Source: Escherichia coli
Lineage (GTDB): Bacteria; Pseudomonadota; Gammaproteobacteria; Enterobacterales; Enterobacteriaceae
Assembly: GCF_050920415.1 (NCBI RefSeq)
Contig: NZ_CP169309.1
DNA: 64,000 nucleotides
Reading direction: 5' to 3' (one strand)
The notes under the pieces: generated by a model
The model's input: the letters and a program-made list of their open reading frames with translations, nothing else
Database searches by the model: none
Told to the model about the DNA's origin: nothing
In this document: positions 61,556-61,900 of the stretch, piece by piece
How positions within the stretch are numbered: position 1 is the first letter of the stretch
Layout: each line of letters starts with the position of its first letter
Position numbers and translations under genes: made by a program

Positions 61556-61900
61556 CAAGAAAATTATATGATCGATTAAGAAAAATAGAATCGAACAGGA
61601 GAATAAAATATATGCGGGGAGTAACAAAACACTCGCAGTGCGTTAATGTGTAACTAACAAATATGATTTGTATTGAAAATAGTCACCAAACAAGTGTTAT
61701 AAGAAATACGGGGTATGTTTAAGTAAAACATATCAACAGTTGCAATTCTGTATATGGACAGGATGACTTACTACTGTAAGTGGCTGATAGCTATTCGCTC
61801 ATAACAAAATGATTATTTTATAAATAGGAATCATCACTTTTTAATCATGTTTTTATTGTAAGTTTATGGAGAATGAGAATATGGAATAAGGAGATGAAAC

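Follow-up and report, generated by a model that had tools for sequence, protein, structure and literature searches.

An AT-rich spacer upstream of eivF in the Escherichia coli ETT2 island ends in a conserved 72-bp module with a putative HilA-box-type direct repeat

The window (the whole 64,000-nucleotide stretch of E. coli DNA analyzed here) passes from core to island at about 59.45 kb, where core DNA of about 51% GC, including xdhA and actS, gives way to an island of 38% GC. A tRNA-Gly(CCC) gene (59393-59466) immediately precedes this fall, and GC content is 38.3% in the island part of the window (59450-64000) and 51.3% in the core. The island is the E. coli ETT2 secretion-system island. The spacer studied here, which lies at its tRNA-Gly end, is the promoter-regulatory region of the inv-type ETT2 operon (eivF-eivG-eivE-eivA and following genes; Table 1). 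The EivF protein shares 99% identity with the RefSeq "type III secretion system transcriptional regulator EivF" and contains AraC-type HTH domains. The stop codon of eivF and the start codon of eivG overlap (ATGA, 62647-62650), an arrangement suggestive of translational coupling between the regulator and secretin genes. A near-identical region, at 95-99% identity, is present in 1327 of the 5426 complete E. coli genomes.

Table 1. Features in and around the eivF spacer (positions in the window, unless an extract is named)
Feature	Position	Strand	Basis or description
GH15 glycoside hydrolase gene	59687-61309	+	ORF map/annotation
GhoT/OrtT-family toxin gene (59 aa), left bound of spacer	61376-61555	+	Pfam PF10753 (E=1.2e-11), RefSeq name
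Spacer (345 bp), toxin-gene stop to eivF ATG	61556-61900	+	ORF map and RefSeq annotation of near-identical genomes
Distal AT-rich spacer (273 bp, 31% GC)	61556-61828	.	Composition kept, sequence not
Conserved proximal module (72 bp): activator box, presumed weak core promoter, short leader, Shine-Dalgarno	61829-61900	+	E. albertii identity
Putative HilA-box-type direct repeat	61830-61855	+	ATCACT (61833-61838)-TTTTA-ATCATG (61844-61849); matrix score 24.3 bits
Inverted repeat TTTAATCATGTTT (61840-61852) / AAACATGATTGAA (61897-61909)	61840-61909	+	Links right half of box to start-codon region
Shine-Dalgarno AAGGAG	61888-61893	+	7 nt before eivF ATG; read from sequence
eivF, InvF-like AraC-family regulator gene	61901-62650	+	99% identity to RefSeq EivF, HTH domains
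eivG/sctC (secretin gene)	from 62647	+	RefSeq annotation of near-identical genomes
HilA-box-like repeat upstream of eprH	extract L003 15808-15833		GTCATCATAATTTGGTCATGAAATTT; 13.2 bits, 66 nt before ATG
HilA-box-like repeat upstream of ygeK/etrB	extract L003 19768-19793		TTCATTATTATTTCATCAATGTATTC; 12.4 bits

Several observations concern the neighborhood of the spacer. Over 61300-61950, only 7 of the 1327 genomes reach 99% identity to the window, most being about 97% identical, which places the window in an E. coli lineage that has been sequenced less often. This lineage has an intact GH15 gene, which is frameshifted in O157. The toxin gene, located between the GH15 gene and eivF, has a GTG start and a strong Shine-Dalgarno sequence, and is listed as ECs3735/ydcX (PMC3977695). 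It occupies the same place in E. albertii, with 62% amino-acid identity, indicating that it evolves fast. Just past the GH15 stop codon lies a hairpin with a perfect 8-bp stem (GCGGTCCT-N8-AGGACCGC, 61323-61346), and in E. coli strain 4012 (extract L056, 3545-4257) homology to the window stops inside this hairpin, at 61343; there, an IS1 copy borders on a deletion spanning the toxin gene, eivF, and all the DNA up to epaO. In some other E. coli (extracts L057 and L058, positions 1402-2063), eivF is cut after 123 nt and fused by deletion to the 3' part of eivA, while toxin gene, spacer, and box are kept. Finally, a 7.8-kb contig binned as a "Collinsella sp." MAG (JAIJJM010000090.1) encodes an EivF 100% identical to that of the window, and almost certainly represents E. 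coli DNA that was wrongly assigned to an actinobacterial MAG.

The initial annotation had described the spacer as about 340 bp of very AT-rich DNA with poly-A/T tracts, upstream of an InvF-like regulator in a horizontally acquired island. Its location holds on both counts, as the spacer ends at the eivF ATG and as ETT2 lies beside tRNA-Gly(CCC) at a shift in GC content from 51% to 38%. The description is right on the eivF side and incomplete on the other, where the toxin gene that bounds the spacer on the same strand had been missed. The AT-richness is confirmed too: the spacer has 29.9% GC (70.1% AT, versus 48.7% AT in the core), a level matched by only 0.04% of all 344-bp windows and 0.5% of island windows, and the lowest-GC 344-bp window of the whole stretch (29.7%) is found at 61524-61867. 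The mention of poly-A/T tracts was overstated, as homopolymer runs do not exceed 5 nt (three runs of this length), although tracts of at least four A or four T are denser in the spacer than in the island (29 versus 17 per kb). Similarly, GC content is lower than in the surrounding island (29.9% versus 38.3%), but the drop relative to the flanking genes, 8-9 points, is only of the usual intergenic size (mean 9.1 points, SD 6.4, n=13 in the core part of the window, based on crude gene calls). Thus, the region is AT-rich in absolute terms and an ordinary spacer relative to its island, and the AT-richness, although real, is ordinary.

Conservation divides the spacer into two parts. Among seven E. 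coli sequences, the distal part shows 10.3 variable sites per 100 bp, versus about 5 in flanking coding DNA. In E. albertii, gene order is the same and the spacer measures 340 bp, yet positions 61601-61840 are only 42-50% identical between the two species, that is, unalignable, while the distal spacer keeps a low GC content (28.7%) in E. albertii; in these 273 bp, composition is conserved and sequence is not. Tiny ORFs noted there by eye (13-19 codons) were dropped, as this DNA cannot be aligned with E. albertii. Positions 61841-61960, on the other hand, are 95-97% identical to E. albertii, versus about 75-85% for island coding DNA. In the proximal 72 bp, 68 positions are identical, and all 12-bp blocks show 92-100% identity except 61853-61864 (75%). 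The boundary of the conserved block is sharp (61828/61829) and coincides with the left edge of a direct repeat. At the other end, conservation extends into eivF, the first 50 nt of which are 98% identical, compared with 81% for the gene overall and 60% at third codon positions. This pattern was checked in five E. albertii sequences, all of which show the conserved block (close Escherichia and Yersinia relatives were gathered by exact-protein look-ups).

The two hexamers of the repeat, ATCACT and ATCATG, are 5 nt apart and hence have an 11-bp period, the right hexamer starting 57 nt before the eivF ATG. We had initially read the repeat as AATCAT-N8-AATCAT with a 14-bp period, a reading that we replaced with the 11-bp register after aligning distant homologues. 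The repeat is the sole upstream sequence common to distant eivF/invF homologues (35-57% identical at the protein level), in which it is located 56-78 nt before the start codon. It reads CATCACTTTTT AATCATGTTTT in the window, CATCATTATTC AATCATGTTCT in Yersinia, CATCATTTTTC CATCATGTTTT in Providencia, AATCAGATTCC CATCATGATTT in Sodalis, Biostraticola, and Acerihabitans, CATAATGTTTG CATCAGGATTT upstream of Salmonella invF (where the upstream DNA reads TTCATAATGTTTGCATCAGGATTTTG), and CATCAGATTTG CATCAGGATTC in Chromobacterium, the upstream DNA of which is 60-67% GC. The 11-bp register is kept in 13 other taxa. The motif is retained in E. albertii, an E. fergusonii-type cluster, Yersinia, Providencia, Sodalis-group bacteria, Aeromonas, Pluralibacter, Salmonella, and Chromobacterium, and also occurs in Pseudogulbenkiania, one further Chromobacterium, and one further Sodalis; a matrix scan found it absent from the invF-like loci of Pandoraea, Burkholderia, and Herbaspirillum.

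We built a 26-column matrix from nine non-Escherichia sites upstream of invF homologues, leaving out an EivF-like protein labeled "Salmonella enterica" (P0030), which belongs to an IS-disrupted non-SPI-1 cluster. When the window was scanned with this matrix, the eivF site ranked first among 127,950 positions with 24.3 bits, the next match reaching 13.2 bits (at 18942). In a leave-one-out analysis, the true site was the top match in all nine training loci, with 17-32 bits versus 3.5-17 bits for the runner-up. The site upstream of Salmonella invF scores 33 bits (26.3 bits in leave-one-out). Salmonella prgH, which did not contribute to the matrix, has the best match of the 10.8-kb prg/hil locus in its upstream DNA (21.1 bits, 70 nt before the ATG). 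From their positions, we infer that the invF and prgH matches are the published HilA boxes. The Salmonella prg/org locus (extract L054, 7687-7712) contains another match of 15.2 bits; it precedes by about 77 nt the AraC-type gene located after orgC, presumably hilC.

The HilA box reportedly consists of two hexamers 5 nt apart, from -54 to -37, and 11-bp direct repeats are the typical target of winged-helix proteins of the OmpR/ToxR type. Both HilA and YgeH contain a Trans_reg_C domain. The repeat upstream of eivF is thus most likely a HilA-box-type site, putatively bound by YgeH or EilA. Published genetics supports this reading. HilA, an OmpR/ToxR-type protein, binds the invF and prgH promoters of Salmonella (PMC7232297), and YgeH and EilA of enteroaggregative E. 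coli (EAEC) strain 042 can substitute for it in Salmonella (PMC4210603). In a ygeH mutant of EAEC 042, eivF, eprH, and ygeK are all down (PMC4210603), and EilA activates eivF (PMC3977695, PMC11068852). The repeat agrees with this published dependence of eivF on YgeH and EilA (PMC4210603, PMC3977695), and the eivF box fits the known SPI-1 paradigm of Salmonella.

Other ETT2 promoters provide further candidates. In the full ETT2 of the near-identical E. coli 24A16CRGN010, the next-best matches after eivF are located upstream of eprH and ygeK/etrB (second and third, respectively, with a uniform background). Their scores of 12-13 bits are at a level reached by chance once elsewhere in the window (the 13.2-bit match at 18942), so that support for them comes from position and conservation: both sites are conserved footprints in E. 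albertii within diverged spacers, the run at eprH being 17 bp long. The box-type motif is found at both the inv-type (eivF) and the prg-type (eprH) promoters of ETT2, and eivF, eprH, and ygeK/etrB together form a predicted YgeH regulon.

These results support the view that the spacer is regulatory DNA, as initially proposed, but the input that can be identified in it is the HilA-box-type repeat of the last 72 bp, not H-NS. The further claim that the spacer holds the regulatory input of the island is too strong, as the top-level input is located at ygeH in ETT2 and at hilA in SPI-1; eivF is a second-tier node of ETT2 regulation. EivF together with YgeG does not activate MxiE-box genes (PMC9241512).

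From the observed composition and conservation pattern, the specificity and spread of the motif, and its recurrence at prgH/eprH-type promoters, we propose, with a probability of about 0.7, that the spacer is a two-layer promoter-regulatory region, made of an activator-dependent 72-bp promoter with a HilA-box-type repeat and of a distal layer devoid of any sequence-specific role. Under this model, ATCACT-N5-ATCATG (61833-61849) would dock the winged-helix master activator YgeH, or EilA in strains that have it, and would be followed by a weak core promoter and then by a short leader containing AAGGAG. The bound activator would recruit RNA polymerase and/or displace silencing proteins, and its action would switch on eivF and the downstream apparatus genes. 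The distal 273 bp, AT-rich and fast-drifting, would be either a passive substrate for H-NS-type silencing or simply unconstrained spacer. Assuming HilA-box geometry (-54 to -37), we infer a transcription start near 61885-61890 and a leader of about 12-15 nt; YgeH/EilA binding and any H-NS occupancy are likewise predictions of the model.

The GGAG of the Shine-Dalgarno sequence is invariant across the cross-species alignment. A sigma-70 scan detected no plus-strand promoter in the spacer, including downstream of the box, and promoter-like sites were not above the number in shuffled sequences. The missing sigma-70 match is expected for an activator-dependent promoter, although it is no positive evidence for one, and eivF/Z4198 has no entry in the EHEC start-site supplements. 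Several points count against the model. First, a leader of about 12-15 nt would be very short. Second, the box is intact in O157 even though O157:H7 YgeH is reportedly non-functional (PMC4210603). Third, the 95-100% identity into the first ~50 nt of eivF exceeds what a DNA binding site alone explains. The near-identity from the box through the first ~17 codons is the residue that the activator-box model leaves unexplained. Divergence between E. coli and E. albertii is about five times lower in the block of about 130 bp (61829-61960) than elsewhere in ETT2, including at synonymous sites of the first 17 codons, and the block may, although we consider this rather unlikely, hold a second layer of eivF control, in the form of a translational or sRNA-targeted element or of a downstream operator for EtrB, the eivF repressor.

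The main competing explanation is that of the initial annotation, in which the region serves above all for H-NS nucleation and silencing and thereby constitutes the regulatory input. We regard it as a serious but doubtful possibility. The spacer is indeed among the lowest-GC DNA of the window, and its AT-richness is maintained in E. albertii while its sequence is not. H-NS is said to recognize a high-affinity motif, tCG(t/a)T(a/t)AATT; the spacer, however, contains no match to the consensus TCGWTWAATT with 0-1 mismatch and only three with 2 mismatches, and the consensus is not enriched window-wide (195 matches versus 198 expected). Predicted curvature also appears ordinary, with a mean of 19.6 degrees per 30 bp in the spacer versus a window mean of 16.0 (SD 8.7), 11% of windows being as curved or more (crude wedge model). 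As shown above, the additional AT content relative to neighboring genes is the normal intergenic drop. Furthermore, in Yersinia and in the E. fergusonii-type cluster, the leaders of the eivF homologues do not exceed the genes themselves in AT content; a strongly AT-rich leader is thus not a requirement that the homologues share. The strain usually chosen for ChIP, K-12, does not carry eivF.

In SPI-1, the invF-invH interval, which is the positional equivalent of the spacer, is H-NS-bound in Salmonella ChIP-seq (bioRxiv 10.1101/2022.04.26.489344), but the AT-richest, H-NS-dominated nodes of SPI-1 are hilA, hilC, and hilD, not invF (PMC7232297). In EAEC 042, eivF is up in an hns mutant, but the authors ascribe this effect to de-repression of ygeH, and the ygeH promoter is the only one in ETT2 for which H-NS binding has been demonstrated (PMC4210603). 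The effect of H-NS on eivF may thus be wholly indirect, via ygeH. Composition alone makes H-NS coating of the distal spacer plausible, although what is conserved can be explained without it; at best, the H-NS explanation covers the distal part and not the conserved box.

Two other explanations, both improbable, concern the conserved block itself. A recombination patch, rather than functional constraint, might account for how closely E. coli and E. albertii match over 61829-61950, as the block is sharp-edged and runs about 50 nt into coding sequence, synonymous sites included. However, the block is common to all five E. albertii sequences, which differ from E. coli in it at fixed positions. Conservation of the core motif also reaches well outside Escherichia, to taxa for which recombination cannot be invoked, and comparable conserved footprints exist at eprH and ygeK. 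Alternatively, the direct repeat could be an autoregulatory site of EivF/InvF itself (AraC family, acting with a chaperone) instead of a HilA-family site, which would agree with its presence before invF-type genes in many taxa. This is unlikely because the motif precedes prgH-type genes too, being the best match upstream of Salmonella prgH and present at ETT2 eprH; prgH is a HilA target, whereas InvF/SicA act at effector promoters. In addition, a head-to-tail 11-bp repeat suits a winged-helix protein, and eivF requires YgeH (PMC4210603).

There is an even smaller chance that the conserved block acts in RNA, either as a hairpin (61840-61852/61897-61909) hiding the eivF start codon or as an sRNA target, in transcripts reading through from the toxin gene. 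The arms of this inverted repeat are 13 nt long and 92% complementary, conservation spans the start codon and early codons of eivF, and a terminator scan, with results not above shuffles, found no intrinsic terminator between the toxin gene and eivF. However, the predicted RNA fold of 61826-61960 is no better than that of shuffled sequences (z=-1.24), the inverted repeat shows no covariation, and both arms are accounted for in other ways, with the box hexamer ATCATG in the 5' arm and ATG-ATT (Met-Ile) in the 3' arm. Moreover, a transcription start downstream of the box would leave the 5' arm out of the mRNA. The inverted repeat is thus probably incidental. Finally, it is very improbable that the spacer belongs to the ghoT/ortT-like toxin gene as a 3' UTR or an antisense/antitoxin RNA site: the gene is an orphan lacking a ghoS-like neighbor and a promoter-like site exists on the minus strand (61844-61815), but the promoter count is not above shuffles, an Rfam scan of 59300-64000 at E<=1 returned only the tRNA and a chance snoRNA match and no family in the spacer, and the DNA beside the toxin gene is the least conserved, even in E. 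albertii, the conserved part adjoining eivF instead.

The activator-dependent reading of the proximal module has several implications. It offers a concrete cis-element for the second tier of ETT2 regulation (YgeH/EilA acting on eivF, eprH, and ygeK), and corresponds to the biology expected from the Salmonella SPI-1 paradigm. It also separates 72 bp that are constrained in sequence from 273 bp that are merely AT-rich, and cautions that AT-rich island spacers are not automatically H-NS nucleation sites. Conservation of the box from Enterobacterales to Chromobacterium could make HilA-family regulons predictable across all SPI-1-type islands.

Among known systems, the MxiE box and InvF-SicA sites share with the eivF repeat their association with the T3SS-island family and their nature as short, conserved, promoter-proximal boxes. 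The MxiE box (GTATCGTTTTTTTANAG), however, bears no resemblance to the eivF repeat, and unlike InvF-SicA sites, the eivF-type motif also precedes prgH-type genes, which are not known to be InvF-controlled. H-NS-silenced and counter-silenced promoters (hilA, hilC, and hilD in SPI-1, ygeH in ETT2) resemble the eivF spacer in being AT-rich intergenic DNA of a low-GC island, in the rise of expression in an hns mutant (PMC4210603), and in the availability of a winged-helix activator as counter-silencer (PMC7232297); they differ from the eivF spacer, which has no match to the high-affinity motif with 0-1 mismatch and, in a crude model, no marked curvature.

The closest parallel is the HilA box of Salmonella PinvF-1 and PprgH, although the two systems are not identical. 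The cognate protein is presumed from genetics to be YgeH (29% similar to HilA) or EilA, the hexamers are ATCACT/ATCATG in E. coli and ATAATG/ATCAGG upstream of Salmonella invF, and the distance from box to ATG is 57 nt in the former and 70 nt in the latter. The upstream neighbor is a co-directional toxin gene in E. coli and the divergent invH in Salmonella. To our knowledge, eivF has no second upstream promoter dependent on HilC/HilD. Both systems have two directly repeated hexamers with a 5-nt gap, as the HilA box is usually defined, some tens of bases ahead of invF-type and prgH-type genes. Their regulators can replace one another in function (PMC4210603), and one and the same matrix yields 33 bits for invF, 21 for prgH, and 24 for eivF.
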